Shown here one piece after another: positions 30,961 through 50,944 of a stretch of DNA of 64,000 nucleotides. The translations under genes were made by a program, and so were the position numbers. The first letter of the stretch is position 1; every line of letters starts with the position of its first letter. Origin of the DNA: Thermodesulfobacteriota bacterium. GTDB taxonomy: Bacteria > Desulfobacterota_D > UBA1144 > Nemesobacterales > UBA2774. Location of the stretch: positions 1,568,001-1,632,000 of the forward strand of contig OZ244197.1 of the NCBI GenBank assembly GCA_965216785.1. The letters run 5' to 3'. The notes under the pieces are model-generated. The model was not told where the DNA came from and searched no databases. It saw only the letters and a list, made by a program, of their open reading frames with translations.

Positions 30961-30966
30961 TATAAT
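30961..30966 (+). promoter_or_regulatory. Putative native tRNA-Ser -10 box, now facing the 5' tRNA fragment
   Basis: TATAAT ~19 bp upstream of the tRNA 5' end copy; no clear -35. Confidence 0.45.
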
Positions 30967-30982
30967 AGAACTCTCACCTAGA

Positions 30983-31025
30983 ACGGAGGGCTGGCAGAAC
31001 GGCTAATGCACCGGTCTTGAAAACC
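30983..31025 (+). repeat. attL: 43-bp direct repeat equal to the 5' half of tRNA-Ser through the anticodon loop
   Basis: ACGGAGGGCTGGCAGAACGGCTAATGCACCGGTCTTGAAAACC identical to 50857-50899. Confidence 0.97.
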
Positions 31026-31162
31026 TAACTGAGCCCGAAAGTAGCGTTAAAGTCCGAATAACTCTAGTTAATAAATCGCCTTATTTTACAGTAGTATTCT
31101 AAGTTCTAAGATTAAAATACTGTTTTGCTCTATAACGCTGTTTAACGGACAATATTATCTCA

Positions 31163-31185
31163 ATCGCTACCAAAATCGCTACCAA
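31163..31185 (+). promoter_or_regulatory. Putative integrase arm-type sites (2 x ATCGCTACCAA, 12-bp period)
   Basis: Matching tandem pair at 50785-50807 near attR. Confidence 0.75.
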
Positions 31186-31249
31186 TGAGCATTCATGGTA
31201 TCTCTCGCTTATTCTTGTTTAATTATATGTTTTTTGGTATATAAGAATA

Positions 31250-31774
31250 ATGGAACAACTATTCTGGTTAATTCTTGGTTTTGTACTAGCCATTTTATGG
31301 GAAAAATATAAAGAGTGGAAACACTTTAAACATAATTTAATGATGTTATATGAAGAGATAGGAGATGCATTATTAAGTTTAGAGAGAAAATATGATGAAT
31401 TGTCTGGAGAACTTAAAAAAGTAGTTACAGCAGCTCAAGAAGGAGGCATTTCGGAAATAGGAATGGAGAACTTGAGTGGAGAACCGGTTTTTGAATTAAT
31501 GATGCCTATGAACACCTCTGCATGGGAAACATTTCTCGCTAATGGTTATCTGGGTAAATTAGATAATCAAGATGCAGAAGTAGTAAAAGAGGCATATGAT
31601 ACTTTAAAAGGAAGTGATTTTATAAAAGGATTAGTGCCAAGCCTTATAGCAGCATCTATTAGCCCAGCATTTAGTGCTAAGACACGGAATTACATGCTAC
31701 AGACTTCTAGAGTTGCTCCTTTATATCCAGTGACTTTCGCTTTACCAAAATTAAAGAAAGCATCAGAAAACTAG
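31250..31774 (+). CDS. Hypothetical protein with N-terminal TM helix
   Basis: 174-aa AT-rich ORF. Confidence 0.6.
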   Translation: MEQLFWLILGFVLAILWEKYKEWKHFKHNLMMLYEEIGDALLSLERKYDELSGELKKVVTAAQEGGISEIGMENLSGEPVFELMMPMNTSAWETFLANGYLGKLDNQDAEVVKEAYDTLKGSDFIKGLVPSLIAASISPAFSAKTRNYMLQTSRVAPLYPVTFALPKLKKASEN

Positions 31775-31959
31775 AAATTTTAATCAAGAAGGATATGTTC
31801 TCATCTTTTTGGCATTTCTTATCTAATTAAAATTATTCTCGAACAACTCGCCCGCTTCCGGCTCATCTCCCGGATCTCTATCTCTTGGGGGTGGAGGCGC
31901 ACTCTCCCCCGCATTTTCTGATTCTTCTGGTATCTGTTCCACCAGATGCATGAACTGGA

Positions 31960-32517
31960 TTATGGGCTGATTCTGCTCCCGTGGGTCTCGGTAATCTGTC
32001 GCCCATATATTGACTCTCTTACGTTACTGGGCAACCACGAATTAATTGTTTCTTTCCTGCTCAACTCGCCTTCTCTTGCTTCCCTCTTAACCCTCTCCCA
32101 TTCATAATTGAGTAAAGTTTGACTAGATTCAATTATCTTATCTAAATGTTCTGCTAATTTCTCTATTCTATCTGTGTCTGTGTAATTTAATGACTCCTTT
32201 ATCAGGTCTAAGATTTCCTTATGTTCTGTTTTGTCAGGATTTAACTGCAACTTAACGAGTTGCATGAGGTCGTCTACCTCTTTTATTATTTCATTTCTCT
32301 GAGGTGTATCCTTACCTGTAAGATTCCAGTGATAAATTAAACCACATATTTTTGCAACTGTTCGTCTAAGTTCTTCCATCCACCTTAGACGTTCTGAGGT
32401 TATAGTGTTTATGAATGTGGTTTTCTTAGAGCTTTGATACGAAAAATAAGCAGAAACCGCTGAGACGACGGCGGCTATTACAGCGGCAACAAGAGTCCAG
32501 TCAAAGGTAGTAGGCAT
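31960..32517 (-). CDS. Hypothetical protein, N-terminal TM + helical domain
   Basis: 185-aa ORF (TITSERLRWMEELR..LQLNP..EWERVK). Confidence 0.65.
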   Translation of the reverse strand: MPTTFDWTLVAAVIAAVVSAVSAYFSYQSSKKTTFINTITSERLRWMEELRRTVAKICGLIYHWNLTGKDTPQRNEIIKEVDDLMQLVKLQLNPDKTEHKEILDLIKESLNYTDTDRIEKLAEHLDKIIESSQTLLNYEWERVKREAREGELSRKETINSWLPSNVRESIYGRQITETHGSRISP

Positions 32518-32621
32518 ATTAAGCCTTTATTCTACAGCTTATGGAGGATATATTGCAAGCTCAGACCATACTTAAAGCCAGTTCCGCACCCCATCCACAT
32601 AACTCGCCAATCGACTTTAAG

Positions 32622-33482
32622 TCATTCCGAGAAGGCATCTCGATGATATGCTAGGTACTCGATATTTATATTGTGATTAGAGTCTATGATAATTTTCTTA
32701 CCAGTATCTATTACCGTGAAATCATCAGAAATGTGCAGTGTATGGGTATCAAACATAACATGATGATTGGGGCATAGACATAAAACATTTTCGATAATGT
32801 CAGGACCATTATGAGGTCTGCCTAAGGGTTTTATATGACAACATTCAGCATACGGTCCTGAAGGTGTAACTAATCTTATTCCGCAGACTTGACAACAATA
32901 ATTATAAATCCTTTTTACCTCGTTACCGACAGCTGTATTTCTTATAATGCGACTTGAAATTACATCTATCCGTGATGGCTTTCTGTTTTCAAATTCTGAT
33001 TTCTGTTTATTCTCACTATCTTTATTAAGGATATTTTCTAACGCTATCTGACCTTCTATTCTGCGTAATTTGAACCTTATAATATCTAAACCGTCAGTTC
33101 CTCTTTCTTTCCAATAATTATCTATCATATATAGACCGTCATATCTGTAGCCTTTATTTGGGGCATACATAGAGTCAAGCTCACTGCCTCTAATTACTCT
33201 TATTGGGTTTCCATCTACATAATTTTTAGCGAGAGACAAATTCCCTCTTGTGAGTGTTTGGTTAGAAATTTGTCGTCCTGTCTTTAAATCTCTGCCTCCT
33301 TGACCGGTATAAATTATGGTATCCCCTTCGTCTAGATCATCTACATAACCCCCAGACAAAACGATTGACTCTCCTCTAGATGATATGCCTTGTTGTAATC
33401 CTCTATGAATATCGGCGTCATGTAATGCTCTTCTATTCTCAAAAATTTGACCTATATTTGTACCTTCGATGTGTCCTATCAT
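32622..33482 (-). CDS. SRA/YDG-HNH endonuclease (putative modified-cytosine-dependent restriction enzyme)
   Basis: SIVLSGGYVDD, YTGQGG, YRYDGLY (SRA); CQVC..HIKPLG..NVLCLCPNHH (HNH). Confidence 0.93.
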   Translation of the reverse strand: MIGHIEGTNIGQIFENRRALHDADIHRGLQQGISSRGESIVLSGGYVDDLDEGDTIIYTGQGGRDLKTGRQISNQTLTRGNLSLAKNYVDGNPIRVIRGSELDSMYAPNKGYRYDGLYMIDNYWKERGTDGLDIIRFKLRRIEGQIALENILNKDSENKQKSEFENRKPSRIDVISSRIIRNTAVGNEVKRIYNYCCQVCGIRLVTPSGPYAECCHIKPLGRPHNGPDIIENVLCLCPNHHVMFDTHTLHISDDFTVIDTGKKIIIDSNHNINIEYLAYHRDAFSE

Positions 33483-33730: not shown

Positions 33731-33931
33731 ATGTTAAAAAAGAAGAAACTGCTCTCCTTAGCGGAAGTAGCTGAGATTTATTCTTTTTCCCTTCTGACCC
33801 TTAGAAGATGGTCTGCAGAAAGACGCTTCCCACTTTATAAGGTGTCAAACAGAATACGTGTTTCACCGACCGAGTTTGAGGCATGGTTAAGTAAATCAAA
33901 AGTAGAGCCAAAAGATAGGAGGAAAATATGA
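33731..33931 (+). CDS. Excisionase-like helix-turn-helix protein
   Basis: LLSLAEVAEI..TLRRW....FP.YKV..RIRV pattern; overlaps primase start (ATGA). Confidence 0.88.
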   Translation: MLKKKKLLSLAEVAEIYSFSLLTLRRWSAERRFPLYKVSNRIRVSPTEFEAWLSKSKVEPKDRRKI

Positions 33932-36351
33932 AATATAAAAAAAGGCTCAGCAGTGAACTGAGCCTCAAAACAATATCAGATAAACAATTAGAATTTATAT
34001 TATCACGTAAAGCGAAGCGTTTCAAAAATTTATTTAAAGGTAGGGAAGATGCCTGGGGATTAATGATAGGCAATAAGTATATTTCTAAAAGTGGTGAGTT
34101 GACTGACTTGCAATACAGGAAGCATTTAGAAGGTAGAGAGTCACTTGGCATATACCCCTTGAAAGAAGACGGAACATGTAACTTTTCTTGCGTTGACCTT
34201 GACTTCAGTGATGACCCTGATCCGAAAGAGCGAGCGGAAAAGGAAGCCATAAGAATACACGAATCACTATTAAATATCGGTTTTGATCCTATGTTCGAAC
34301 GTAGTAAGTCGGGACTGATTCACATCTGGCAGTTGTTCAAGGAACCCGTATCGGCCTTAAAAGTAAGAGCTGTTCTCAGGAATATCTTGGAGAAGCTCAG
34401 TCTTAATGTCAGGAATGGCCAGGTGGAGATATTTCCTAAACAGGATTCTTTAGAGCCTGGTAAACCTGGGAATTTTATTAATCTTCCTTATTTCGGCCAG
34501 AATACAGTAATGCGAAGAGTCATGCTTAAGACTCCTGACTTTACTCCTATATCATTAAGTGAGTTTCTTAAAAGAGCTGAGAGAAGCAGGATTCCAAAAG
34601 AGACCTTGGATATAGCTTATAATAAGTTATGCGAGGAGCAGGTTCTCAGCAAAGCAGACATAAATAAGAGAGTCGTAGATATACTCTCTACCTATTGGTC
34701 TGAGGGGCAAAGACAAGACTTAACCTTATATACTTCTGGATTTATGGTAAAAGAAGGATTTACCTTGGAACAGGTACAAGAGATTATCTTAGAAGTAGCC
34801 CATAGAGCCGGAGACACAGATATTGAAGAAAGAATAAATGCTATTAAGAGCACTTTTGAAAAGGCAAAAAAAGGGCAAGATATAAAAGGTTACGAGGGTT
34901 TAAAAGAAAAACTTAGCTCTCAGGATTTACAAACCATGTGCTCTTTATTCCAGTCAGAGCAAACTGAAGAAGAGCCTAAGAATAAGAAGTATAAGGCGGT
35001 GTTCCCCGGACTGGTTGATATAGTTGAAGATAAGGGCAAGGTAGTTTTTTTGGTTAAAGAGGATAGCAAGCTAATATTAAAAACTCATGTTGAGGTAAAT
35101 GGGGAAACTTATTACCCTCCACCAAGAGACTCATTACCTTTTTTAACCTTACCAAGGGGTGATGAAGTATTAAAACACTACTGTGCCGATACCGATACGC
35201 AATTATATGAAGATTTAAGGTCTTATCATGTAGGCATTTCAGAACTTCCTAATGATATGTTTTACGATTTACTGGTAGCGTGGGACTTCCACACTTATCT
35301 CTTCGATTTGTCTCAGTATTCTCCTATCATCTGGCTCTACGCAGTCCCTGAACGTGGTAAGAGTCGTACCGGTAAAGGTTGCATTAACGTTGCCTACAGA
35401 GGTATTCATATAGAGACACTGAGAGAGGCCCATTTATTTAGGTTTGCTGACAACTTAAATGCGACTTTATTTATTGACGTTATGGACCTTTGGCGAAAAG
35501 CAGAAAAAGAGAATTCAGTAGACATAATGCTGCATAGATTTGAAAAAGGCCCGAAGGTTCCAAGGGTTCTATACCCTGAAAGAGGGCCGTTCAAGGATAC
35601 AGTATTTTACGATACTTATGGGGCTACAATAGTTGCCACCAATATGCCTGTACATGAGATTATGGAGACACGTTCACTCATGATTACAATGCCAGAGGCG
35701 AATAAAAAATACGAGAATGATATAACACCTGAGTCAGCATTATCACTAAAAGAGCGACTGGTGGCCTTCCGTGCTAGACACTTAGGAAATACGCTTCCTG
35801 ATGTTGTGGTACCAACTAGTGGAAGGCTAAGTGTTATACTCAAGCCCCTGTTTCAAGTTATAAAGCTTATAAAGCCTGAAAAAGAGAAAACTCTATCAAG
35901 GCTCACGCGGCAACTGCAATCCAGTAGAAAAGCCGAACTCTCGGAAAGTAACGCAGCTAGCATAATAAGAGTTATTGTTGCTGAACTGGGTAGGGTTAAT
36001 AATGCTTGGCTCCCATTAAAGGTAATTACAGATATATATAACAACCTGTATGCTGGTAATGATAAATACACATATAGGAAAATGGGTCAAGAGCTTAGCG
36101 CACTTGGTTTCAAACAACAGAGTGGCACCAAAAAGAAGACCAATAGGGGAGTATCTATTAAGTTGGACATACCTATGATTATAAAATTGAGCATTAAGTA
36201 CGGTGTCCCATTCAGCTTAAAACAAGTACGTGGAAACAAACGTCTCAATCGTCGCAAAGGTCACTCGGCTAATAATAACAGTAACTCTAAGGACGATGTT
36301 TCTAGTGGTCTTACGTTAGAAGATATGAAAAGGTCACTAGAACAACACTGA
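33928..36351 (+). CDS. AEP primase (TOTE-type) fused to PriCT-like and P-loop-like domains; element replication protein
   Basis: FKGRED, GIYPL, CVDLD, ERSKSG..HIW, EIFPKQ, GNFINLP; EGQRQD; PERGKS. Confidence 0.82.
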   Translation: MKYKKRLSSELSLKTISDKQLEFILSRKAKRFKNLFKGREDAWGLMIGNKYISKSGELTDLQYRKHLEGRESLGIYPLKEDGTCNFSCVDLDFSDDPDPKERAEKEAIRIHESLLNIGFDPMFERSKSGLIHIWQLFKEPVSALKVRAVLRNILEKLSLNVRNGQVEIFPKQDSLEPGKPGNFINLPYFGQNTVMRRVMLKTPDFTPISLSEFLKRAERSRIPKETLDIAYNKLCEEQVLSKADINKRVVDILSTYWSEGQRQDLTLYTSGFMVKEGFTLEQVQEIILEVAHRAGDTDIEERINAIKSTFEKAKKGQDIKGYEGLKEKLSSQDLQTMCSLFQSEQTEEEPKNKKYKAVFPGLVDIVEDKGKVVFLVKEDSKLILKTHVEVNGETYYPPPRDSLPFLTLPRGDEVLKHYCADTDTQLYEDLRSYHVGISELPNDMFYDLLVAWDFHTYLFDLSQYSPIIWLYAVPERGKSRTGKGCINVAYRGIHIETLREAHLFRFADNLNATLFIDVMDLWRKAEKENSVDIMLHRFEKGPKVPRVLYPERGPFKDTVFYDTYGATIVATNMPVHEIMETRSLMITMPEANKKYENDITPESALSLKERLVAFRARHLGNTLPDVVVPTSGRLSVILKPLFQVIKLIKPEKEKTLSRLTRQLQSSRKAELSESNAASIIRVIVAELGRVNNAWLPLKVITDIYNNLYAGNDKYTYRKMGQELSALGFKQQSGTKKKTNRGVSIKLDIPMIIKLSIKYGVPFSLKQVRGNKRLNRRKGHSANNNSNSKDDVSSGLTLEDMKRSLEQH

Positions 36352-36454: not shown

Positions 36455-36976
36455 ATTACTACTATAAACACTCAGAGGGACGTAATAAAAACGATAGCAC
36501 TGCTGGCACAGAATAAGCTCGACCCTGAGACTTTATCTAAAGCCGAGCAGAGCCTTCTCATCGAATACTTAAGGTTTGAGGAAAACCTTACTATTAGTAC
36601 GATAGCGGCTCTATTGAACATTCATAGAGACACTGTGAGAAGCAGAATAAAGAAAGCGGACGAGGCTATGAGGACTAGGCTAATAGCCAGAGGTTTTGAC
36701 GCTTGGGACGTCATATCTGAGCTGATGCGGGTGAAGAGGGTAGTGCAGTCTAAGGCAGCCAAAAAAGGCGACTGGGGCTTAGTATGGCGGACAGAGATGG
36801 ATACAATAGACAAGCTTATATCACTCGGTTTAATTAAGCAGTACGACCCTCTTTCTGCGTCTCAGGAGGACGATTTAAAAGGTATAGACGCTAAGACCCT
36901 TCGGAAGAAATATGAGGAAGCCAAGACAAAAGAACAGAATAAAACGCCTGGAGTTAATGCTAAAAATAGAGCCTAA
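36455..36976 (+). CDS. HTH protein, possibly terminase-small-subunit-like; true start probably upstream of 36614
   Basis: Frame open from 36452; LTISTIAALLNIHRDTVRSRIK HTH spans the TTG called by the ORF track; GAGGT upstream of ATT 36455. Confidence 0.6.
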   Translation: MTTINTQRDVIKTIALLAQNKLDPETLSKAEQSLLIEYLRFEENLTISTIAALLNIHRDTVRSRIKKADEAMRTRLIARGFDAWDVISELMRVKRVVQSKAAKKGDWGLVWRTEMDTIDKLISLGLIKQYDPLSASQEDDLKGIDAKTLRKKYEEAKTKEQNKTPGVNAKNRA

Positions 36977-37283: not shown

Positions 37284-38648
37284 TTAAACCGTAGCGTACT
37301 TCTTCCTGATTGCGATAAATCCAACTAGCCCTAACACTCCCGCCATAGCTATAAGTCCCCATTCTGAAAGGGTAGGAATATTTCTTGCCGTCATCGGGTC
37401 GAGGCACAAAGCCAAGTAAATCTCTTCGAATCCATCAGGATTCCCACCGTTTATGTTAGACTGCGATTCAAAGGCTATGTAACTGCCGTTACCGCTTACT
37501 ACCGGGTCTTCGCTGTCATCATTATTCGTAGAGGTCACGGGGATTAGGACGCCGTTATTTGTATCAGTTACTATGATTGAACGGTTATTCTCGGGGTTGA
37601 CATTATCAAGGTTAAGCTCGGACTCTATTGCAACGATTGTGCCCGTGTAATCAATCGATGGGTCGACACTCCCTACTCCGAACCCGCCGTTGGTCAACTG
37701 TGTAAATGTGTTCGTATTGGTATCGAAAACAAAGGTCTGGTGATGCAGGCCCGGATTCCCGCCAGTAAAGTTTTCACGGGAACGAAACGCGATTCGAGTA
37801 CCATCCGCATTTACTGACGGTTGTCCGCTACCGAACCCAGTAGTGAATGTTATCTGCTGGATCGTCCCGTTTGTTACATCGGCGAGGTATATCTCTGAAT
37901 TGTGATCAGGATTTCCACCGTTAATATTCGCAGTAGATGTAAAAGCAACACAATTGCCTTCCGCGCTAATCGAAGGAGAAACACTATTGTATAATGTAGA
38001 GTCAGTTATCTGGGTAATTATCCCGGTTGCAGTATTGGCGATCCATATCTCATCTCTACCATCCGGGTTTCCGCCGTTAAAGTCATCGTCGGAACGAAAC
38101 GCTATTCGTGTACCATCTGCGCTTATAGATGGGTCTGTACTTCCTGATATAAACATGTTAAATGGACTGTCAGTTATTTGCGAAATTACTCCGGTTGTGG
38201 AATTGTAGAGCCATATCTCAAGGCTGCCATCCGGGTTTCCGCCGTTAAAGTCATCGTTAGAACGAAACGCAATAAGTGTGCCGTCTGCGTTTACAGAGGG
38301 AAAGCCGTTGTTTTGAAGGCCCGTTGTGTTTGTAATCTGAGTAATCACACCGGTTATTGAATTGACAAAGAATATCTCTCTATTATTGTCCGGGTTTCCG
38401 CCTGTATGGTCGGCGAGTGATGAGAACGCTACAATTTTCCCGTCGAAATTAATTGAAGCTTGTTCACTGCGTTCCTCGGGGTCGTTGGTCAGCTGTTTTA
38501 TCGCATGTCCTGGGCAGACGAGCTGCTGGGCTTGAGCGGAATGATTAGCAACAATAACTGATGATAAGAGTAAGATTGTTATTGCTAAAAAGAAAGATGC
38601 TTTTCGGCAAAACGTTAATTCTCCGGTAAATGTCTTTATGTATTCCAA
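37284..38648 (-). CDS. PD40/TolB-like beta-propeller protein with IPTL-CTERM
   Basis: Repeated PSVNADGT.IAFRS..NGGNP units; IPTLSEWGL-TM-RKK; TTG start with AGGAGG. Confidence 0.9.
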   Translation of the reverse strand: MEYIKTFTGELTFCRKASFFLAITILLLSSVIVANHSAQAQQLVCPGHAIKQLTNDPEERSEQASINFDGKIVAFSSLADHTGGNPDNNREIFFVNSITGVITQITNTTGLQNNGFPSVNADGTLIAFRSNDDFNGGNPDGSLEIWLYNSTTGVISQITDSPFNMFISGSTDPSISADGTRIAFRSDDDFNGGNPDGRDEIWIANTATGIITQITDSTLYNSVSPSISAEGNCVAFTSTANINGGNPDHNSEIYLADVTNGTIQQITFTTGFGSGQPSVNADGTRIAFRSRENFTGGNPGLHHQTFVFDTNTNTFTQLTNGGFGVGSVDPSIDYTGTIVAIESELNLDNVNPENNRSIIVTDTNNGVLIPVTSTNNDDSEDPVVSGNGSYIAFESQSNINGGNPDGFEEIYLALCLDPMTARNIPTLSEWGLIAMAGVLGLVGFIAIRKKYATV

Positions 38649-38809
38649 TGTCTCTACCCTCCTTAAAGATAAAAATCTAAGTCTAAAGATTACTATAGAT
38701 TGATAGAAATTAATAGATGGTAAATCGTATTTATATGAGAGTTATTGACAAATCCACTGACATAGCTCCTGGTAAATAATCTGGATGTGACGTAAGTTGG
38801 TGAGATTAC

Positions 38810-38858
38810 TGGAGCCGACGATCGGAATTGAACCGATTACCTGCTCATTACGAGTGAG
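38810..38858 (-). pseudogene. 3' half of tRNA-Thr(CGT): orphan att-site remnant
   Basis: Minus strand reads CTCACTCGTAATGAGCAGGTAATCGGTTCAATTCCGATCGTCGGCTCCA; no D-arm or 5' acceptor strand. Confidence 0.88.
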
Positions 38859-39107
38859 TTATTAGTTAACCACAGGTTATCTAACTAACTGTAATTACTT
38901 GATAATATTTCCAGCATATGACCTCATATTAACTAAATACCATTGGAAGGTTAGATAATGGTTAGACACTTTTAATGCACATGCCTCCTGCGTAAGTATC
39001 TAATCTATCATGTTGTTACTAAGGGTTCAATAGTAGAATACGGGTAGTAACTCTTACTAATTGATTAGGCCCAGCTATAGGTTGATAGATGGATTTTTAA
39101 CATGCTA

Positions 39108-39133
39108 ATGAGGGGAGCCGAAGCTCCCCTCAT
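39108..39133 (-). terminator. GGGAGC-TTCG-GCTCCC hairpin
   Basis: Perfect extended stem downstream of the C-type lectin gene; weak U tract. Confidence 0.65.
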
Positions 39134-39201
39134 ACACATTTGATCCTCCCTTTTTAGCTGTGGAGGAGGATAGAGGGAGGATAGGATGAAAACATTATTT
39201 T

Positions 39202-39810: not shown

Positions 39811-40079
39811 CTTATATCCTCCTCTAACTTAAATGTTAAAAATTTGAATTTACTTTTTTTGACAGCTTGTAGAGTTATTGAATTTTTAGGTTGTACATTT
39901 AGAATTTGAAGATTACTTACACTTAAACCCTGATTGTCATAATGAGCAGCTTCTAGTTACTATAGTCGCATCTAATCAACAGTAGTAATCGACCTCCTTT
40001 AAGGCTTAACAGTAATATGCATTATACAATAAACAGAAACAAATGTATACCTAGTCTAAGGCTGGATTAAGAGATGATT

Positions 40080-41708: not shown

Positions 41709-41954
41709 AAAGATGGTGTGTAATTAAACATATGATGGTAATTAGTTGAGATTATTGAGAATATATGACTTTAAAAGAGAGCAGTGCACAAGCATAGTGA
41801 TATAAATAATTACTAGTCACTTGGTGTAATGATATTGAGTCACTTTTTCAACATCTGGTAGTTTCCATGTTTTGTCAAATAACGACTTCTCAGGCCTATA
41901 CAAACTGTTAATCAGAAAGAAGTCTTCTCCAGTAAGTAGCCAATTTGATTACTT

Positions 41955-43028
41955 TCACCCTCCATTATTGGGTTTGAGAGGAATCCCATTATCGTAACTA
42001 ATGTCCCCGTCAAGATATTTTTTACCAGGAGGTGCCTTATCACCGGGGACTCGCTCCTTTTCCACATAATGTCTGCCATCGTACACATGAGTAACATATG
42101 TCCGGGGAGCTCCGCCACCCGATTCTAACCGCACAATGTTGTTCCATCCCGATGTTCTCTCGTCAGAGACAATGACCGGTAAACGGCTTATGGGAAAGTT
42201 ATCAACTAATTCGTAACCTTCTTGGCTTGGAGTAAAAAGCATTAGACTACAGCCGCCTGTACCGCAGAATATTGAGCCCAAGAGGTAGACAAAGACTTCT
42301 TGGGCTCCATCACCGTTTAGATCAACCCGAGTGTAAACGTAACGCGCTGTGATTCCGTTACCAATATCCATCATCTCTTGATTATAGTCAGGAGACTCTC
42401 TAATTATAGCTGCCTCAATAACTGAGTCGGGCTCTGTCTGTAAGTTTCTTTGGTCGTCATGTGGTTCCCACACATAAATGCCGCCGTCTGCCATCAAACT
42501 AAGGTAGAGCTTACCATCTTTTAATAAGTAAGAGCGTACATATTGGGTATGAGTCGAAATTTGCTCATCCAGTCTCGGAGCGGGGCAGAGCGCATTTGTG
42601 GTCGCAAGCTTCCCAAATTCAAATCGACCGCTTGTGCCGTCAGGACCAGCTTGGGACGACCATGTTCCATTGGCTTGATTACAGTCAAGCATCATGTTGA
42701 CAGCCCCGTCAGCATTAAGTTGCATGGTAAACTTGGAAGAATCTTCTGGTCGTATCGTGTCCACTGAGTCATCCATTGACTGAAACTCTAGCAGGCGCCA
42801 TTTGGTTCCAGCGAGCGATTCTACGACACCGGTTTCAGAATCAGCAGTTTTATCCTTGTCCGACACGGCCTCAGTTGATTGAGTATCAGATTGTGTTTGA
42901 GGTTCATCACCGGACTGGCTGCACCCTGTGAACATGAGCAAACTTACTAAAAACATAACTACAATATAAAGGCACGTAGCTGAATTATATTTAAGATTCT
43001 TATTTACCACTGATTTAACTCGTTTCAC
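41955..43028 (-). CDS. META-domain lipoprotein
   Basis: Lipobox FTGC; LAGTKWRL, DCNQ..G, T.ALCP; C-terminal DLNGDG..CGTGGC domain. Confidence 0.85.
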   Translation of the reverse strand: MKRVKSVVNKNLKYNSATCLYIVVMFLVSLLMFTGCSQSGDEPQTQSDTQSTEAVSDKDKTADSETGVVESLAGTKWRLLEFQSMDDSVDTIRPEDSSKFTMQLNADGAVNMMLDCNQANGTWSSQAGPDGTSGRFEFGKLATTNALCPAPRLDEQISTHTQYVRSYLLKDGKLYLSLMADGGIYVWEPHDDQRNLQTEPDSVIEAAIIRESPDYNQEMMDIGNGITARYVYTRVDLNGDGAQEVFVYLLGSIFCGTGGCSLMLFTPSQEGYELVDNFPISRLPVIVSDERTSGWNNIVRLESGGGAPRTYVTHVYDGRHYVEKERVPGDKAPPGKKYLDGDISYDNGIPLKPNNGG

Positions 43029-43121
43029 AAAATGCAGAAATCAGCAAAGTCTAAATTCTATTGAGTAAATTGCACTCTGCCTGCCAATAGAAATGACTCT
43101 GCTGATTTCTCAGTATCTTTA

Positions 43122-44147
43122 TCAACCGCCGTAAATTACTGCTTCGGGGATTTCATAACGCTCGTTTCCGGCATTTATCATATACAAGTCAGATTCTTTT
43201 TTAGATTCAAAATCCATGTTGCCGTCTGCTTGAGAAAGATCAGCGCTTACAGCGTTTCCGTTCTCAAAGAAAATAGCCCGCTTTCTTCCATCCGGTAGTG
43301 TGACTGTTACTGTTGCTGTTCCATTACCTTCTCTTGTCACACCGAATGGACACTGACCCATCGGCTGTCCTTTGGACTGTGCACAGGGGATATCTCCTGT
43401 GGCATCATATATATCCTGCCCGGCAAGCTCAGCACTCTGAGCCTCTGATGCCGAGTCAGGCGCGGAGAATGTAAGTTTCCATTTACCCCATTTAAATACT
43501 TCGTTATCTCCCTTGTCTATCATAGAAGCAATATTTTTAGACATACCCTCAGGTGTTTCCACTTGATAGCCATTGCTTTGTTCCATAAAGCTATAGGTCT
43601 GCCCGTTGCTAAAATTTATCACGTACTTATTGGTGTTTTGTGAAGCATGCTGTTCTATTTTACAGGTGCCTTTGTATTTATTGTTGTCGCTCTTTTTGTT
43701 ATACAAAGTGCATTGCCCGTCAACCGATGTTACAACAGGCTCAAACTCGGCAGTTTCACTATTCTTACAGTCAAATTCGGGTGCGTAAACAATCGACTGA
43801 TACCTGCCGTCTGCTGTACGGATCGTAACGCATTTTCCTGTGCTGTTTTCTGTCCAATAACTATAGGAGCTGTCACCGGACTTATCGGTTTTTACGTAAG
43901 TGTAGCCCCTCTGCTTAAGTCCCATCTCAGCCTGACCAGCTTTTGCTCCAACAAGGTCAGATAACCCTTCGACCGGGTCCTGGGCATATACAGGCTGTAC
44001 AGTTTGTGAAATAACGATTAAGAAAACGATAATGAAAAGACTAGATAAAAGGTAGCGCATAGCATTCCCTCCTGAACATTTTATTTTTGACCAACCCGCC
44101 ATAAACAATTGAATAATTATTCTGATTAAAGTTGTAGTATCAAGCAT
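43122..44147 (-). CDS. Exported hypothetical protein (likely start MRYLL at ~44060)
   Basis: Signal peptide; C-terminal CPFGVTREG..ERYEIPEAVIYGG domain. Confidence 0.7.
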   Translation of the reverse strand: MLDTTTLIRIIIQLFMAGWSKIKCSGGNAMRYLLSSLFIIVFLIVISQTVQPVYAQDPVEGLSDLVGAKAGQAEMGLKQRGYTYVKTDKSGDSSYSYWTENSTGKCVTIRTADGRYQSIVYAPEFDCKNSETAEFEPVVTSVDGQCTLYNKKSDNNKYKGTCKIEQHASQNTNKYVINFSNGQTYSFMEQSNGYQVETPEGMSKNIASMIDKGDNEVFKWGKWKLTFSAPDSASEAQSAELAGQDIYDATGDIPCAQSKGQPMGQCPFGVTREGNGTATVTVTLPDGRKRAIFFENGNAVSADLSQADGNMDFESKKESDLYMINAGNERYEIPEAVIYGG

Positions 44148-44231
44148 TATTTTGACTATGGCAGAGGTATATCAGACTTCGAAATTTGATAGTCATCTTG
44201 ACCCTGGAATCAAACTTGATATTATGGGTGG

Positions 44232-44248
44232 TATTGTGTACATAACGT
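44232..44248 (+). repeat. Res-like repeated motif, copy E
   Basis: TATTGTGTACATAACGT; near-inverted TTATGCACAA at ~44282. Confidence 0.75.
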
Positions 44249-44311
44249 GAGCGTGTTGAGGGCTTAATCCGGGTGCTGTAATTATGCACAATTATTGAGT
44301 TTTCTGGCAAT

Positions 44312-44333
44312 AAAAAAGGGAGCCGAAGCTCCC
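44312..44333 (-). terminator. UUCG hairpin terminator
   Basis: GGGAGCTTCGGCTCCCTTTTTT on the minus strand. Confidence 0.8.
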
Positions 44334-44373
44334 ATTTGCGTTTTCAATGAGTACTGTATAGGTTAGTTTCCGA

Positions 44374-44490
44374 TTAAGCTGTAACTTTCTGCTGTGGATA
44401 ACTATTAAACCTATAATTCTTAATACTCCTACCATGGCTAACAGTCTCCTTTCGATAAGGGTTGGGATGGGTGTAACAAAATCAGCTCCT
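44374..44490 (-). pseudogene. Orphan, decayed IPTL-CTERM tail
   Basis: Reads TPIPTLIERRLLAMVGVLRIIGLIVIHSRK, followed by the standard terminator, with no intact passenger domain. Confidence 0.75.
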
Positions 44491-44619
44491 TTTATTACAG
44501 CTATAATCACTGAATCATTGGCAGCTGGCTCTGTACACAACTTACAAAGTCCTTGAGCATCCTCCTTACTAAGAATATAGGACATAAAATATATATGTAA
44601 TCCTGCTATAATATACCTT

Positions 44620-44652
44620 TCAGAGCTCATACAGGCCCGTAGAGACGATTTT
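44620..44652. repeat. 33-bp exact direct repeat (copy 2)
   Basis: Identical to 37130-37162. Confidence 0.93.
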
Positions 44653-45239
44653 TTTAGGTGCCCCTGAGCTTACCCCGGTTATTTGATTTAAAGAGCCTCT
44701 GTAACTAGGCTCTTAATATTTTACCGCTTCCCTCTTGCTAAGCATGTCTTCTGCGTTTATATGTTTTCTGAATAATAAAAAGAAGGGATATAAAATTCCT
44801 TTATTATGTCTACAATGTAAGCTTGTCCGGCTCTTAATTGGATTACCGTGATGATTAACATATGAGATGAGGGAATTTCTCGATATTGTCTTATAGTTTC
44901 AGACGTTCTGTTTCCTAGTTCATATTTAGCAACCTCTGTAATGTTAAGTATAATCAAGATCCTTTCATACGGTATAGAAAATGTCACCTCGTCACAACAT
45001 ATTCAGACTCTCTTATATAAAAATAATTTTAATGGAAGAACAATCTGCTTTGGATTGTAATGAGTATGCTGCTAGGTGGCTCAACAGCTAAACATCTGGA
45101 TCCGTATTCCCAGTCCTATTTACTTTTATAAGATTTCAATTATTATGACTCTCAACATTAAAAACAAATGTTCACATTTAGTGGTCTTGCATGGGAAGGA
45201 TTCGCAGTGATGGACAAAAATTAAAAGAGAAGCCGTAAT

Positions 45240-46175
45240 ATGCGTCATTTTAATAATATTCTTTATGTCGGGCATGGTACCTCAGATGAAACCGAAGGCC
45301 TCAAGCAGGCGCTGAGTCTGGCCCGTAATAATCAAGCCCCGCTGAAAGTTCTTATCGTGTGCCCGGATTTCCCCACAGATATGCCTGATTATAAAATGAA
45401 GTACGAAGAATCGCTTCTGGAGCAGGCAAACGCCTCCATCCACTCTACCAAAAAGGCGATAAAAATTGCCGAAGAAGACGTAGAGCTTTCTGTAGAGCTG
45501 GAAAGCGATAAAAATCCCTCTATACGCATTATTCAGCATGTGTTGCGTAACAGTCACGATCTGGTTATTAAAGAAGCCGAACCCCTTGAGGATGGTGGTT
45601 TTAAGGCTATCGACATGAGCCTGCTACGCAAATGCCCGTGCCCGGTGTGGCTGTGCCGAGCTATCAAACAAACCCGACAGCAAATCCATGTGGCGGTGGC
45701 CATTGATCCTGCGAGTAAGGAACCGGCAGTGCAAGCACTCTCAAAGAGAATGCTGGAGCTCTCTAGTTCACTCGCAGATAGTTGCAGCGGGGAATTGAGC
45801 ATTATTTCCTGTTGGGACTATGAATTCGAGAATTATTTGCGTGGCAGTATGTGGATAAAAATGTATGATCAGCAAATTACAGAAATTGTTATACAGGCAC
45901 AGAATAATCACAAGGCCGTTCTGGAAGCCTTGATCAAGGAATCAAGGATTTCAGGCATATACCATATACATCATCTTAGGGGCCGGGCTGAAGAATTGAT
46001 CCCATCATTTACGGAGAATAAGAAGGTCGATATCCTTGTAATGGGCACGGTGGCGCGTACCGGAATAAAGGGATTGTTGATTGGAAACACGGCGGAAAAT
46101 ATCGTACAGAAACTTTCCTGCTCGCTGATTGCGTTGAAGCCAAGCGGTTTTATCTCCCCGGTAAAGGCGTATTAG
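45240..46175 (+). CDS. Universal stress protein (tandem USP, UspE-like)
   Basis: HDLVIK, LLRKCPCPVW, VMGTVARTG..GLLIGNTAE motifs. Confidence 0.93.
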   Translation: MRHFNNILYVGHGTSDETEGLKQALSLARNNQAPLKVLIVCPDFPTDMPDYKMKYEESLLEQANASIHSTKKAIKIAEEDVELSVELESDKNPSIRIIQHVLRNSHDLVIKEAEPLEDGGFKAIDMSLLRKCPCPVWLCRAIKQTRQQIHVAVAIDPASKEPAVQALSKRMLELSSSLADSCSGELSIISCWDYEFENYLRGSMWIKMYDQQITEIVIQAQNNHKAVLEALIKESRISGIYHIHHLRGRAEELIPSFTENKKVDILVMGTVARTGIKGLLIGNTAENIVQKLSCSLIALKPSGFISPVKAY

Positions 46176-46383
46176 CACAAGGGAAGGTCTGAATGCAAGA
46201 GATGGAACCAGATCGTGTAGCGCAAAGCTGGCATAGCGAAACAGCGGATCATAGTTTGACAAGCCCCAGAAAACATGTCCACCTTTTAAATTATTAATAT
46301 TCATATAATCCTCTCTAATAAGTTGAGGCAAATCCATGCTACTCACCTTTTTTATAAGTCGTTTATGCATTTTAACACTAGAA

Positions 46384-46575
46384 AAGAACGGGTATTAGTC
46401 CCGTTATTGTGATTACAATGTAAGTGTGATTGGATCTAGCTTAAGGTACTGTGTTTGTTGGTTGTTTTGATGCACTTCTGCGCTTATATGTGTTCACAAT
46501 TGTAGTAAAGAAGGGGTATAAATGAGTGGTATTGTGAACATAACGTAAGTGTGATTGGCTCTAGCTTAAGTTGCT
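46384..46575 (+). repeat. Two tandem copies (125-bp period) of the res-like motif (D, C)
   Basis: TATTGTGA..A.AA.GTAAGTGTGATTGG.TCTAGCTTAAG at 46405 and 46530; inverted TGTTCACAAT/ATTGTGAACA at 46491/46531. Confidence 0.8.
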
Positions 46576-46607
46576 GATATGACTGACTATTATAAGGGTG
46601 CTACTGT

Positions 46608-46696
46608 TGTACTGCTCCCCTTTCGTCAAGATAGATTTAAGTTAAGATTATCAATAAAAGAACTACAATAAAAAAGGGAACCGAAGCTCCCTTTTT
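46608..46696. repeat. 3'-end module: IS3-like end + terminator (copy 2)
   Basis: TGTACTGCTCCCCTTTCGTCAAG...AAAAAAGGGAACCGAAGCTCCC. Confidence 0.78.
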
Positions 46697-46722
46697 GTGT
46701 ATTCATTTGGTTCTGTATGAGA

Positions 46723-47451
46723 TTAAATTGTAACCCTTCTTCCATGGATAGCCAATAAACCTATTATCCCTAGTACTAACGCCACGGCTATAAGACCCCA
46801 TTCGGATAGGGTAGGGATAGGTCTAGCAGACCCACATGTACCGAATGAGAGCTCATATAGCAGTTCAAGTTGCGGTTGTCCTGATTCTCCGAGTTCGATG
46901 CGTGTTATTGGACCGCCAACTGATAATACACCCAAAAACGTACCGTTAACAGGTGTCACATTCACGGTGGTTGAGCCTAGAAAGATGTTTCCTGCACCAC
47001 CACCGAATACCTGCACTTCTACGGTCGAATTAACGTCAGAAGAAACAATCACCATTCCAAAAGTGTTTACAACTTCAGTAAATGTAATCACCGTCTTATC
47101 TGTGCCGACAGAAGCCCCTACGGCAACATTTGTTAATCCACTAAAGGGTGGTGTTAACACCAGTATAGGATTACCAGGATCGGTAGATCCACTGAGTGAA
47201 AACCCGGGAATAAGGGCTCCCGGTGAGTAACAGATATTATTTGTAAAGCTGTTAAAAGGACCTGGGCAAGATTCGACATCGTTAGGCGGGACGTTGGTGT
47301 TTTCGAAGCCTTCAACTGCGAGATTATCGCAAGTATTATTAAATAACCCCTCGTCATCAAAGAATTGCAGAGCCTGCGCACTGGCCATTGTAGACGTAAC
47401 TAGAATTAAAGCTATAAATAGCACTAATGTTTTTAATATTGTCTTATACAT
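46723..47451 (-). CDS. Secreted protein with IPTL-CTERM
   Basis: Signal peptide; IPTLSEWGL-TM-RR; RBS AGGAGG. Confidence 0.88.
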   Translation of the reverse strand: MYKTILKTLVLFIALILVTSTMASAQALQFFDDEGLFNNTCDNLAVEGFENTNVPPNDVESCPGPFNSFTNNICYSPGALIPGFSLSGSTDPGNPILVLTPPFSGLTNVAVGASVGTDKTVITFTEVVNTFGMVIVSSDVNSTVEVQVFGGGAGNIFLGSTTVNVTPVNGTFLGVLSVGGPITRIELGESGQPQLELLYELSFGTCGSARPIPTLSEWGLIAVALVLGIIGLLAIHGRRVTI

Positions 47452-47565
47452 TAAAAGTTCCTCCTTTAAACAATCACGCTTGACGATTATATAATAATTG
47501 CAAAGAATTGTATAGCTAGTCTGTTAAACCCACGAAAATCAGTCCATCTTAGAAAGTTATAAATT

Positions 47566-47650
47566 TGTACTGTACCCCTATGTCAAGACAGGTTTTAGTT
47601 GAATTTAATACCGAAGAACTAAACTAAAAAGGGAGCCGAAGCTCCCCTTT
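47566..47650. repeat. 3'-end module: IS3-like end + terminator (copy 3)
   Basis: TGTACTGTACCCCTATGTCAAGACAGG...AAAAAGGGAGCCGAAGCTCCC. Confidence 0.78.
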
Positions 47651-47673
47651 GTTCTGTTTCCGATAGTCTCTGA

Positions 47674-49035
47674 TTAAGCTGTTGCGTACTTTTTCCTGAT
47701 TGCTATAAATCCTACGAGTCCTAATAAACCAGCCATTACTATGAGACCCCATTCTGATAGGGTTGGTATGGGAAGTGGTCCAGTGTCGCGGCATACTGCC
47801 AAGAATATTTGCTCTCTTGCATCAGGGTTCCCGCCGTTGATGTTCGCCTGTGACTCAAAGGCGATACGCGTGCCGTCTCCGTTTATTGAAGCGTCTTCGC
47901 TCTCTGTATTTCCCGGTCCTGATTCATTGGTTACACGGGTGAAAGTTCCCGAGCTAATATCAAAAACGTATACTTCCTCATCATTATCAGGATTAGGGCC
48001 GATAATATTTGCAGTTGACTCAAAGGCGATGCGTGCGCCGTTTGCGCTTAATGAAGGGTCACGGCTATTACCCGATGTCGTATTTGTTATCTGTGTGATT
48101 GTACCTGTAGTTACATTGGCAAGGTATATTTCTTGATTACCTTCCGGATTGCCCCCGTTGATGTTACCGCGCGACGAGAACGCTATAAGCGTGCCGTCAG
48201 CGTTAATTGAAGGTTGAAATGAGTCGCCATCCGATTGAAAAGTTATTTGAGTAAATGTGCCTGTTGTTGTATCGAAGAGGTATATCTGTGATATATTGAG
48301 CGGGTTACCTCCATTGATATTTGCTTCAGACCTAAAGGCTATACGCGTTCCATCCGCGTTTACAGAAGGGGTTCTATTTGAAAAACCGCCAATTGTGTCG
48401 GTTATCTGGGTGAATGTACCTGTCGTTACGTTGAAAAGGAATATCTCCATGTTTCCGTCAGGATTAGCGCCTGTTATGTCTGCCTCGGACCCAAAAGCTA
48501 TAATTGTCCCGGATGCATTAGCTGAAGGTGACGCAACACCATCATTCGGGTCTGTAATATTTGTAATTTGAGTAATTACCCCGGTCGTATTATTGACAAG
48601 GAATATCTGATCTATATTTTGAGGGTTATTCCCGGTGAGGTTAGAATCTGATCTAAATACAGTAACTGTGCCATCCCCGCTTATACAAGGACTGTCGCTG
48701 TTAACTGATCCGTCAGTCAACTGGGTTATAGCACCTGTAATAGCATTGACAAGGAATATCTGCCGGATGTTGTTAGGGTTATCGCCCGTAAAATTTGCCG
48801 ATGAAATAAAGACAACGCTAATCCCGGCGTCGTCAATAGAAGCATCGTCACTATTCTGAAAATCATCAGTTAGTTGCTGTATAGCACGCTCAGGGCAGAC
48901 GAGGGGTTGTGCCATTGCGGAATTAGTTGTAATTAGAAACGATGCAATTAGAAACAGCAGTAATATGAAAAGGTTAATAACTTTTTTGGAGTGCGGATAT
49001 TCTTCGTTTGCTTCAATTATTCTTATAGATTTCAT
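47674..49035 (-). CDS. PD40/TolB-like beta-propeller protein with IPTL-CTERM
   Basis: PSINADGT.IAF repeats; IPTLSEWGL-TM-RKK. Confidence 0.9.
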   Translation of the reverse strand: MKSIRIIEANEEYPHSKKVINLFILLLFLIASFLITTNSAMAQPLVCPERAIQQLTDDFQNSDDASIDDAGISVVFISSANFTGDNPNNIRQIFLVNAITGAITQLTDGSVNSDSPCISGDGTVTVFRSDSNLTGNNPQNIDQIFLVNNTTGVITQITNITDPNDGVASPSANASGTIIAFGSEADITGANPDGNMEIFLFNVTTGTFTQITDTIGGFSNRTPSVNADGTRIAFRSEANINGGNPLNISQIYLFDTTTGTFTQITFQSDGDSFQPSINADGTLIAFSSRGNINGGNPEGNQEIYLANVTTGTITQITNTTSGNSRDPSLSANGARIAFESTANIIGPNPDNDEEVYVFDISSGTFTRVTNESGPGNTESEDASINGDGTRIAFESQANINGGNPDAREQIFLAVCRDTGPLPIPTLSEWGLIVMAGLLGLVGFIAIRKKYATA

Positions 49036-49171
49036 CTTCTATGTCCTCCTCTGGAAAAAGACTCTGAACAGTATCTTACAATAAATCAGAAGAAATTAAT
49101 AGGTTTTCGCAGCACTGCTATATAGTAGTAATTAAAGAGCTTAATTCTGCATCGATGCTGTATCGTAATAT

Positions 49172-49375
49172 TTATTTCGCATGGGTGGCCTTAAAAATTT
49201 CAAACCCATCTGGATAGAAACGTATCCTGTCCTCATCAGCTAACTTTTCATAAAGACACTCTGCCTTCTTAAACTGGCCCCGCATAATACATAAATTAAT
49301 AGCATCCGCAATTGTATACGGCTCCTTGATTTCGGCTAGATACTCTTCACGGTCTTTAAACGCACCTGAGAACAA
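49172..49375 (-). CDS. Small hypothetical protein (possibly 5'-frameshifted; ATG at ~49449)
   Basis: Short ORF divergent from the RHH/integrase operon. Confidence 0.4.
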   Translation of the reverse strand: MFSGAFKDREEYLAEIKEPYTIADAINLCIMRGQFKKAECLYEKLADEDRIRFYPDGFEIFKATHAK

Positions 49376-49507
49376 TTGTTCAAATTCTTCGTCTGTTATA
49401 TCTAAGTCAATAATTGTCCTTATTGTATTAGCCTCTCTTGTTTAGACATTAACTATAAAGGAAAAGTATAGCTGGTCTTAACAAAAGTAAATCGCTTTTT
49501 TAGTTGC

Positions 49508-49536
49508 TTGACTTTGACTTGATATGACTATATAAT
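49508..49536 (+). promoter_or_regulatory. sigma70 promoter for the RHH-integrase operon
   Basis: TTGACT-17bp-TATAAT, overlapped by TGACT repeats. Confidence 0.75.
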
Positions 49537-49546
49537 ATATATTCAC

Positions 49547-49741
49547 ATGACTAAAAGATTCAGACCCAATTTGATACACATATATCTCCATCCTGATGAG
49601 GACAAGTTCCTCAAGAACTACGCCGAGAAGAACTACATGACAGCTTCTGAGCTTATCAGAGGCTGGATTCACGAAGTTATGAAAATAGAAGGGGTCGAGA
49701 TTACAGAACCAAGAAATCCTGAAAGGAAAAAGGGGAGGTGA
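49547..49741 (+). CDS. Ribbon-helix-helix-like regulator
   Basis: IHIYL beta strand + EDKFLKNYAEK + TASELIR; overlaps integrase start. Confidence 0.72.
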   Translation: MTKRFRPNLIHIYLHPDEDKFLKNYAEKNYMTASELIRGWIHEVMKIEGVEITEPRNPERKKGR

Positions 49742-50838
49742 GTATTATGGCGGTTTTTAAAAGAAAGGTTAAGGATAAAGACGGCAAAGTCACAGAATAC
49801 TGGTATTACGAACTACCACTACCAGGTGGAAGGAAGCTAAAAAAGAGTGTGGGTAAGGTGGGCAGAGCGACTAAAGCTATGGCTCGTCAGGAAGAAGATC
49901 AGAAATGGAAAGAGATTAAGAACGGGCAGTTAGGCAATGTAGAAATACCGACATTGAATGATTTCAAAGACGAATATTTAAACTACAAGAGGGAAGTTAG
50001 TAAAAAGAGGTCATGGAAACGGGATGAAGAACTGTTAAGGCCGCTTTGTAAGCTCTTTGGTACTAAAAAATTGTCTGAGATTACTATACAGGATCTTGAA
50101 GAGTTTAAGCAGATAAGGCTTAAGGAAGTAAGCTCAGCAACGGTTAACCGTTCACTGTCTGTACTGAGGCATCTCTTAAATCTGGCTAAGAGATGGGGGA
50201 AGTTCTACGGTGATAATCCAGTATCGATTGTCGGCTTGCTTGAAGAGCACAATAAGATAGAACGGGTTCTAACGCCAGAGGAAGAAAGAAGGCTGCTCAG
50301 TCAGGCTATTAACTACCTGAGACCTATATTATTCACTGCCCTTAATACAGGTATGAGAAGGGGCGAGATATTAAACTTAAAGTGGTCAGAAGTTGATTTG
50401 GAAGTAAACCTCATTACGGTTAATCAGACTAACTCGAAGAGTAAGAAAGAGAGAAGAGTGCCGATTAACTCACCAATGAGAACCATGCTGCTAGAATTAA
50501 AGCTTAAGTCGACGAACTCAGAATTTGTTTTCACAGATAATCAGGGCAATCCCATAAAGACAATAAGAACAGCTTTTGCTGCCGCGTGTAGGCGAGCAGG
50601 AATACCAGAGCTCAGGTTTCATGATTTAAGGCACACAGCGGGCACGAGAATGGTTGAGGCCGGGGCTAATATCGTAGCTATTAGCAAGATTCTCGGCCAT
50701 AGTGACATAAAGACAACTATGAGGTATGCTCACCCAGAAGAATCACTCAGAGAGGCTCTTGAATCATTGGCTAAATTCGGGGAAACTACTACCAATATCG
50801 CTACCAATGATATTGCCCATAACTCAGAAGTGACGTAA
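49738..50838 (+). CDS. int: Tyrosine recombinase/phage integrase
   Basis: TGMRRGE, K, FHDLRHT, LGHSD, TMRY catalytic motifs; next to tRNA att. Confidence 0.97.
   Translation: MSIMAVFKRKVKDKDGKVTEYWYYELPLPGGRKLKKSVGKVGRATKAMARQEEDQKWKEIKNGQLGNVEIPTLNDFKDEYLNYKREVSKKRSWKRDEELLRPLCKLFGTKKLSEITIQDLEEFKQIRLKEVSSATVNRSLSVLRHLLNLAKRWGKFYGDNPVSIVGLLEEHNKIERVLTPEEERRLLSQAINYLRPILFTALNTGMRRGEILNLKWSEVDLEVNLITVNQTNSKSKKERRVPINSPMRTMLLELKLKSTNSEFVFTDNQGNPIKTIRTAFAAACRRAGIPELRFHDLRHTAGTRMVEAGANIVAISKILGHSDIKTTMRYAHPEESLREALESLAKFGETTTNIATNDIAHNSEVT
50785..50807 (+). promoter_or_regulatory. Putative arm-type sites inside the int 3' end
   Basis: ACTACTACCAA-T-ATCGCTACCAA, matches 31163-31185. Confidence 0.72.
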
Positions 50839-50858
50839 CCTACTGTAATTATTACCAC

Positions 50859-50944
50859 GGAGGGCTGGCAGAACGGCTAATGCACCGGTCTTGAAAACCG
50901 GCGTCCTTACGGACTTGGGGGTTCGAATCCCTCGCCCTCCGCCA
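50859..50944 (+). tRNA. tRNA-Ser(TGA), intact, contains attR
   Basis: GGAGGGC/GCCCTCC acceptor, CCGGT-CTTGAAA-ACCGG anticodon arm, long variable arm, GTTCGAATC, encoded CCA. Confidence 0.98.

Follow-up and report, generated by a model that had tools for sequence, protein, structure and literature searches.

We analysed a window of 64,000 nucleotides from a Thermodesulfobacteriota bacterium (assembly GCA_965216785.1, contig OZ244197.1, positions 1,568,001 to 1,632,000 of the forward strand), which contained an integrase island inserted in the host's only tRNA-Ser(TGA) gene, within its anticodon arm. Sequence comparison suggested that this tRNA was likely transcribed from a promoter, designated Pa, lying in the last codons of the integrase gene (int), probably with the help of a second site, Pb, and we assigned a probability of roughly 0.58 to this reading. 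That the element supplied the tRNA promoter was very likely. The evidence leaned towards a main promoter site inside int rather than at 50813-50841 (Pc), where a preliminary description of this sequence had placed it. The features that carried the argument are given below, with scores from a crude promoter matrix trained on the genome; the candidates Pa, Pb and Pc all fell in the last 160 bp.

30939-30966 (+): TACACT-16-TATAAT, the native promoter of tRNA-Ser, which now points at the 5' fragment; matrix score 8.0
30983-31025 (+): attL direct repeat with the 5' half of tRNA nt 1-41 left stranded, in which 31016-31022 is the anticodon loop
49508-49536 (+): promoter-like TTGACT-17-TATAAT of the small regulator-int operon; 11/12, the best in the element; matrix score 14.6
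49547-49741 (+): ribbon-helix-helix-like small regulator of 64 aa that overlaps the start of int; weak DUF6290 and RelB matches
49738-50838 (+): tyrosine integrase, intact, 366 aa; PF00589, PF24624
50702-50730 (+): Pa, predicted int-internal tRNA promoter GTGACA-17-TATGCT; codons S322-A331, including the catalytic Y330
50759-50787 (+): Pb, the other candidate inside int, TTGAAT-17-GAAACT (in most relatives CAAAAT-like); matrix score 8.7
50813-50841 (+): Pc, candidate TTGCCC-17-TAACCT of the preliminary description; 7/12 consensus, not listed by the promoter scan
50857-50899 (+): attR direct repeat, the element-supplied tRNA 5' half; the anticodon loop (50890-50896) is the presumed 7-bp overlap and putative place of the crossover
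50859-50944 (+): tRNA-Ser(TGA), the sole tRNA in the window according to ARAGORN

A single-copy tRNA gene separated from its native promoter

The host genome (G000) was a single 3.12-Mb contig carrying a tmRNA and 44 tRNA genes, and the count of other tRNA-Ser(TGA) genes proposed in the preliminary description gave none among them. TCA codons, which need this tRNA under the standard wobble rules, made up 19% of the 48,148 serine codons in 1581 long open reading frames (ORFs). The direct repeat was exact over 43 bp, comprised two upstream bases and tRNA nt 1-41, and lost its identity 3 nt past the anticodon loop; it bounded an island of 19,874 bp with a GC content of 40.8%, compared with 46% for the genome. 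The stranded 5' fragments of relatives stopped at the same base and were followed by TA. As had been described, the repeat was the tRNA 5' half up to the anticodon arm, the native TATAAT box (30961-30966) now faced the stranded fragment, and the intact tRNA started 20 bp after the int stop. The integrase gene was whole and its stop lay 18 bp before the repeat.

Because the tRNA's 5' half was duplicated, the intact gene lay behind the integrase. Since it was the single gene for UCA codons and its native promoter stood 19.9 kb away behind terminator-like sites, the tRNA would, by necessity, have to come from element DNA. Read-through of the island from the host promoter was unlikely over this distance, with several terminator-like sites on the + strand between the native promoter and int; no such site was found on this strand in the island after 47646. 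The single Ser(TGA) gene, the use of TCA and the distant native promoter all supported the earlier proposal that the element supplies the promoter of an important tRNA.

A search for tRNA-Ser(TGA) in 61 genomes gave a match in 58. In G001, which belonged to the same genus, 1512 nt before the intact tRNA were 73% identical to window positions 29485-30984, including the TATAAT box, and the upstream region had no match to the element end; the G001 contig stopped at the tRNA. Since this region resembled the left flank and not the element end (50800-50858), the left flank could be taken as the native upstream region, and the opposite outcome considered in the preliminary description did not occur. 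Additionally, G008 and G044 had the gene order orf27377-phosphatase-tRNA-rsmI-gatA without the island. G002 was dropped as an empty site, its contig ending 37 nt past tRNA nt 41 with other letters. The native promoter boxes also preceded the intact tRNA in G001, G003, G018, G021, G027 and G029.

The stranded native copies of relatives were found to decay: the one in G003 lacked the -10, and those in G019 and G030 lacked the acceptor stem and the promoter. The G003 locus (L032, 3700-5850) held a 2-kb insert in which the repeat included about 60 nt of the native promoter, so that the intact tRNA kept its TATAAT and the stranded copy lost it; this would be another solution to the same problem of promoter separation. 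In G006 (L280), G011 (L281) and G022 (L021), the ends of other elements with arm-like repeats of their own stood before tRNA-Ser(TGA), its upstream region having been replaced several times in this family.

In two other studies, records almost identical to the right flank matched from exactly 50857 on (X6 with 88 differences in 7144 nt), and a single 151-nt record (X8) had the same break at 50857, the preceding letters being different, which would fit an empty site. Logan contigs from three runs broke at the repeat, with no attP or attB joint among those listed. Read depth in X2 was 59-76 inside the island versus 81 outside, a weak hint.

A candidate promoter in the catalytic codons of the integrase

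The int residues R207, H295, R298, H321 and Y330 were invariant across 40 aligned homologues, some of which were labelled Ca. Dadabacteria by their sources; about 45 metagenome integrases had 60-82% identity. We collected 207 distinct integrase 3' ends from the fetched loci. A tRNA gene stood between -150 and +200 bp in 75 of them and was missing in 111, and the remaining 21 were cut off too early. The 75 tRNA-adjacent integrases fell into 52 convergent with the tRNA (3'-type) and 23 co-directional with it (5'-type). The tyrosine could be placed in 66 of the 75 rows, six 5'-type and three 3'-type rows being dropped, and Pa was scored in this register at a threshold of at least 9/12. It was present in 8/17 5'-type rows, namely all eight of the Ser/Cys clade holding this element, and in 0/49 3'-type rows. 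Moreover, in five in-frame sequences of the clade the synonymous positions of the box codons were fixed in 4/5 cases versus 3/29 for other codons (p=0.003). The Arg codon before the Tyr was AGG in 9/12 close 5'-type rows versus 6/39 close 3'-type rows, and this codon gave AGGTATRCT, which resembled the native AGGTATAAT box.

The 29-nt Pa pattern occurred in 10 of 120 genomes, nine times upstream of a co-directional tRNA (tRNA-Ser in eight cases and tRNA-Cys in one); the tenth match, with two mismatches and a broken -10, belonged to a 3'-type integrase. Viral contigs yielded two loci and no match to the pattern, and a search of genome contigs with a single integrase protein returned mostly distant integrases. 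The predicted start of RNA polymerase lies within int at about 50737, which would leave a leader of about 120 nt for RNase P to remove. The genome contained RNase P RNA, and the tRNA was computed to fold correctly with the long leader.

Decayed integrases provided a further view of the same site. Regions upstream of tRNA-Ser(TGA) were fetched from 58 genomes (59 regions, 58 long enough to test), and 12 of the 58 clearly matched the int end. In three the integrase was intact (G000, G024, G068), in one it was cut by the contig (G031), and in eight it was deleted or decayed and stood directly before the tRNA (G007, G014, G017, G019, G026, G028, G035, G052). That these eight genomes, with a 5'-deleted or decayed int, kept its 3' end agreed with the earlier suggestion that loss of the int end would be costly.

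Seven of the eight remnants were analysed at positions invariant among four reference integrases, G035 being too decayed to project. The extended -10 of Pa had changed at 0/56 positions versus 57/428 for the other int coding positions (p=0.001), or 0/32 versus 46/244 when counted by genus; the spacer had 6/70 changes and the Pb sites 4/54. In G052, from another family, a 47-bp piece with 87% identity covered just Pa, and the arm and IHF-like sites were gone. The G014 remnant started 7 nt before the Pa -35, and G028 had lost the ATG and the frame and kept both Pa boxes. On island decay the int tail with its -10 was thus kept and the stranded native copy decayed, presumably because the tail had come to serve as the tRNA promoter of the host.

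The conserved ATGAGGTATRCT might instead have been kept for another cause, such as the start of a C-terminal peptide of 39 aa or a protein-binding site, with unrelated promoters, cryptic or in the cargo, driving the tRNA. The frame from the ATGAGGTATRCT ATG, running from Met328 to the int stop (window 50719-50838), was indeed open in 5/7 remnants (G007, G014, G017, G019, G026), and the Pa spacer was also well kept. However, AGGTATRCT persisted in G028, where the ATG and the frame were lost, and in G052, where the frame was lost, and the ATGAGGTATRCT letters resembled the native box, making this explanation very doubtful.

Several observations weighed against Pa as the main promoter. A 9/12 match alone was at chance level, with 53 found in the element and 51.8 expected, and the matrix score of Pa (2.7, or 5.3 for TATACT variants) was under those of Pb, Pc (8.1) and the operon promoter. 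The eight carriers of Pa formed one clade and were not independent, and Pa was missing from the Arg clades and from the intact 5'-type integrases that G024 and G068 carry at this tRNA. The Pa stretch was the best-conserved part of the protein and therefore the easiest to detect. In the remnants the Pa -35 had changed as often as other positions (6/42), and G007 had lost it. Finally, a 3'-type remnant (G027, tRNA-Ala) began at nearly the same codon, so that remnant boundaries alone prove little.

Another possibility was that in the intact element the tRNA was produced mainly by read-through from the promoter of the regulator-int operon and cut from the mRNA, the internal boxes being a back-up. 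The operon promoter was the best of the element, no terminator-like site on the + strand separated it from the tRNA, the integrases of G024 and G068 without Pa favoured it, and such read-through would parallel a review statement on archaeal pTN3-like elements (PMC8371274). However, this promoter would be useless in the remnants without the 5' part of int (G007, G014, G017, G019, G026, G028, G052). Additionally, integrase operons are usually kept low, which fits poorly with an essential tRNA. We therefore considered operon read-through unlikely as the main source of the tRNA.

In the preferred reading Pa is probably assisted by Pb. Among ten aligned sequences of the clade the -35 of Pb was retained in 9/10 and that of Pc in 3/10. 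A 33-nt match to Pb in G015 scored 38 versus a shuffle maximum of 36 among the 58 regions, which was no more than suggestive; matches in G006, G060 and G063 were not counted. Over the last 200 nt, 5'-type rows (n=23) had a higher top promoter score (median 7.9) than 3'-type rows (n=52, median 3.6), the rows being kin. Other good sites were seen in 5'-type rows at Lys/Asn/Thr (5.9-11.2), Leu (14.3) and Ile (8.6). The best scores were low in G024 and G068 (2.0-3.9) and in the Arg clades (1.4-4.7), and since these also lacked Pa, their tRNAs must depend on read-through or on other signals. In a Ca. Stahlbacteria record (L080), the tail of a 5'-type integrase at tRNA-Leu(CAA) carried a perfect TTGACA-17-TATAAT.

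Attachment site architecture and target orientation

31163-31185 (+): paired P' arm-type integrase sites, of putative arm function; G068 has a homologous P' arm
50785-50807 (+): P arm-type sites within the int C-terminal codons
50835-50852 (+): IHF-like attP motif, its end 41 bp ahead of the middle of the anticodon; also in 3'-type homologues

The arm-type 11-mer had three copies in the genome, all of them in the island: two lay 140 bp inside the left end and one in the int tail, beside a partial arm copy. These repeats inside both ends fixed the element ends independently, and their presence on both arms pointed to a lambda-type architecture. The 18-bp attP motif, read as its reverse complement, resembled the IHF consensus, and IHF alpha- and beta-like genes were found in the genome as best matches below the curated cut-offs.

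The 18-bp motif followed the arm repeats in both 5'-type and 3'-type rows. Its end lay 41-42 bp from the anticodon middle in 20/23 5'-type rows (39-43 bp in all) and 41-43 bp from it in 39/52 3'-type rows (51-54 bp in 12 and 61 bp in one). It adjoined the CCA in 3'-type rows and stood 3-8 nt before +1 in 5'-type rows. A quick tree of 66 near-full-length proteins, with nine short rows kept out and the root not known, required at least four orientation changes. Recombination would be lambda-like within the 7-nt anticodon loop, the motif being kept 41-42 bp from the anticodon in either direction of the tRNA, and the 5'-type may arise by reading the symmetric stem-loop reversed. In order, attP carried the int end, arm sites, 18-bp motif and tRNA nt 1-41, with the host promoter left at attL. 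The idea that the flip evades the long variable arm of tRNA-Ser was rejected because 5'-type integrases also targeted Cys, Lys, Asn, Thr and Arg and because a 3'-type row was found on the long-armed Leu at 54 bp.

This comparison bore directly on Pc. Its -10, TAACCT, was the left half of the 18-bp motif and occurred in 3'-type homologues at the same anticodon distance. Since the motif was common to both types, TAACCT was assigned to the recombination scaffold and not accepted as promoter evidence. The letters TTGCCC-17-TAACCT were where the preliminary description had read them, whereas the promoter role given to them was not supported, and from the sequence this was probably the wrong promoter. 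If Pc were nevertheless the main one, with a start near 50848 overlapping the IHF-like site, the tRNA would have a short, native-like leader. The Pc score here was as high as that of the native promoter, its scores in G019 and G007 were 9.3 and 7.7, and TTGCC-type -35 boxes stood before tRNA-Ser(TGA) in G004, G010, G013 and G032. Against this, its consensus match and -35 retention were poor, the TAAC part was equally present in 3'-type elements, where firing would be antisense, and Pc was absent from G052, so that a main role for it seemed improbable.

An extended -10 yielding a leaderless tRNA might also be provided by the IHF-like motif through its AT-rich end (TG-n-AATTAT, 6 nt before +1), and the spacing from the motif end to the tRNA +1 was 5-8 nt in 21/23 5'-type rows. 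However, it is this spacing that sets the distance of 41-42 bp between motif and anticodon, as in 3'-type rows, where the same letters adjoined the CCA. With a matrix score of -12.5 and the last T lost in G028, such a promoter was highly improbable.

Relation to known systems

Islands of the 5'-type have been known since 2002, with transcription of the rebuilt tRNA mostly assumed; the first case of an island in a tRNA gene (tDNA) with a 5' fragment was reportedly that of Zhao and Williams in that year. In the present island the full tDNA and the upstream fragment of its 5' end were on one replicon in the same orientation. The size was within the 2-200 kb of Islander, and the island was absent from the same locus in relatives (empty sites in G001, G008 and G044). 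The interval encoded a PF00589 integrase (126 bits), all Xer and integron models being far under their cut-offs. The Islander article gave a 5' fragment for 159 of 3919 islands (Hudson et al. 2015, PMC4383910) and described features also seen here: a tyrosine integrase, an upstream 5' fragment in the same orientation, a restored tRNA and an anticodon-centred site. Unlike that class, 23/75 tRNA-adjacent integrases of one family were of the 5'-type here, with recurrent switches, a fixed geometry of motif and anticodon, and a candidate promoter in int. The layout is thus that of a known minority class, to which the predicted dual-coded promoter adds a new twist.

The pTN3/TKV4-like archaeal integrases (PMC8371274) also use the tRNA 5' half as attB, and the rebuilt tRNA is reportedly expressed from element DNA. 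Those integrases are suicidal, being split by att, and the promoter used is int's own. Here, in contrast, att did not lie inside int, which was whole, arm and IHF-like sites were present, and the candidate promoter was internal.

The closest working model is the Streptococcus pyogenes island SpyCIM5 (Scott et al. 2012, PMC3430984): a promoter mapped by primer extension in a decayed int rescued mutL. Both cases have an int-internal promoter for a downstream host gene after decay, the present one being predicted from sequence. SpyCIM5 was described there for one strain, with a cryptic promoter in a pseudogene and a protein-coding target, whereas here the boxes were fixed in intact integrases across genera and stood before two tRNA targets (Ser and Cys). 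HTVC019P-like pelagiphages carry the tRNA 5' part in an attP located 3' of int, with integration confirmed by PCR (10.1101/410191); unlike this island they are podophages, and the word 'promoter' was absent from the consulted text of the preprint. The dusA-associated integrase islands (PMC4482086) replace the 5' end of their target and carry putative -10/-35 boxes, with a protein-coding target and a different integrase family. Among the papers listed by literature searches, none dealt with a tRNA promoter located in the catalytic codons of an integrase.

We saw an even chance that this integrase clade evolved a host-type promoter in its own catalytic tyrosine codons, so that the int tail became a dual-coded addiction tag taking over the tRNA from upstream. 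After island death, several genera would have domesticated it as a lasting promoter for an essential tRNA with a single gene copy, and independent flips in the same family would have given rise to different promoters within these 200 bp. The family would then offer a concrete answer on the transcription of rebuilt tRNAs, in the form of a 29-bp int site and natural deletion variants, with 3'-type relatives of the same att geometry as a matched control. It would also imply that target orientation can flip without altering the recombination scaffold, that a core translation gene can permanently have its promoter replaced by mobile DNA, and that short int tails before tRNAs should not be dismissed as junk in annotation.

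Island cargo and neighbouring elements

31250-31774 (+): first cargo ORF, 174 aa, no family, 3' of the stranded native promoter
32622-33482 (-): SRA-HNH nuclease, likely modification-dependent restriction cargo; PF02182 and PF13391, weak PADLOC type IV match
33731-33931 (+): HTH_17 excisionase-like protein; PF12728, phrog_66/1840
33928-36351 (+): AEP primase-polymerase, 807 aa, likely replication module; PF22548, phrog_21866
37284-49035 (-): cargo with five IPTL-CTERM exported proteins, a META lipoprotein, Usp (on the + strand) and others

An integrase, an excisionase-like regulator and a primase/replication gene are a trait of phage-inducible chromosomal islands (PICI) and phage satellites and were present here. 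Packaging or helper-interference genes in the PICI order were not seen, 36614-36976 and other small ORFs giving no PHROG or Pfam match, and on its gene content the island was classed just as an integrative element, not as a PICI. The stranded native promoter pointed into the island, and no terminator-like site was found in 30700-31400; it could drive the ORF at 31250-31774 or yield a tRNA 5'-half RNA. The five IPTL-CTERM genes (of 44 such motifs genome-wide) formed the bulk of the cargo, each followed by a similar hairpin, and repeats of about 40-70 nt (families D15, D18 and D20) stood upstream of several of them.

Three other 5' duplications were seen in the host genome: of Arg(CCT) over 42 nt, where an integrase stopped 12 bp short of the tRNA (G000:C1:1807009-1825231, -), of Pro(CGG) over 47 nt, where the integrase lay at the distal end (G000:C1:109880-116017, -), and of Leu(CAA) over 64 nt, where no integrase was seen (G000:C1:1322020-1330257, +). 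At G000:C1:77181-116017, L031/L047 (G019) and L033/L046 (G007), tRNA genes stood between an upstream 5'-type element and downstream 3'-type elements, which made the intact gene wholly element-derived. Finally, in L319 (G068) and L311 (G034) the int end of another element stood before the 5' fragments, forming tandem arrays of 5'-type islands.

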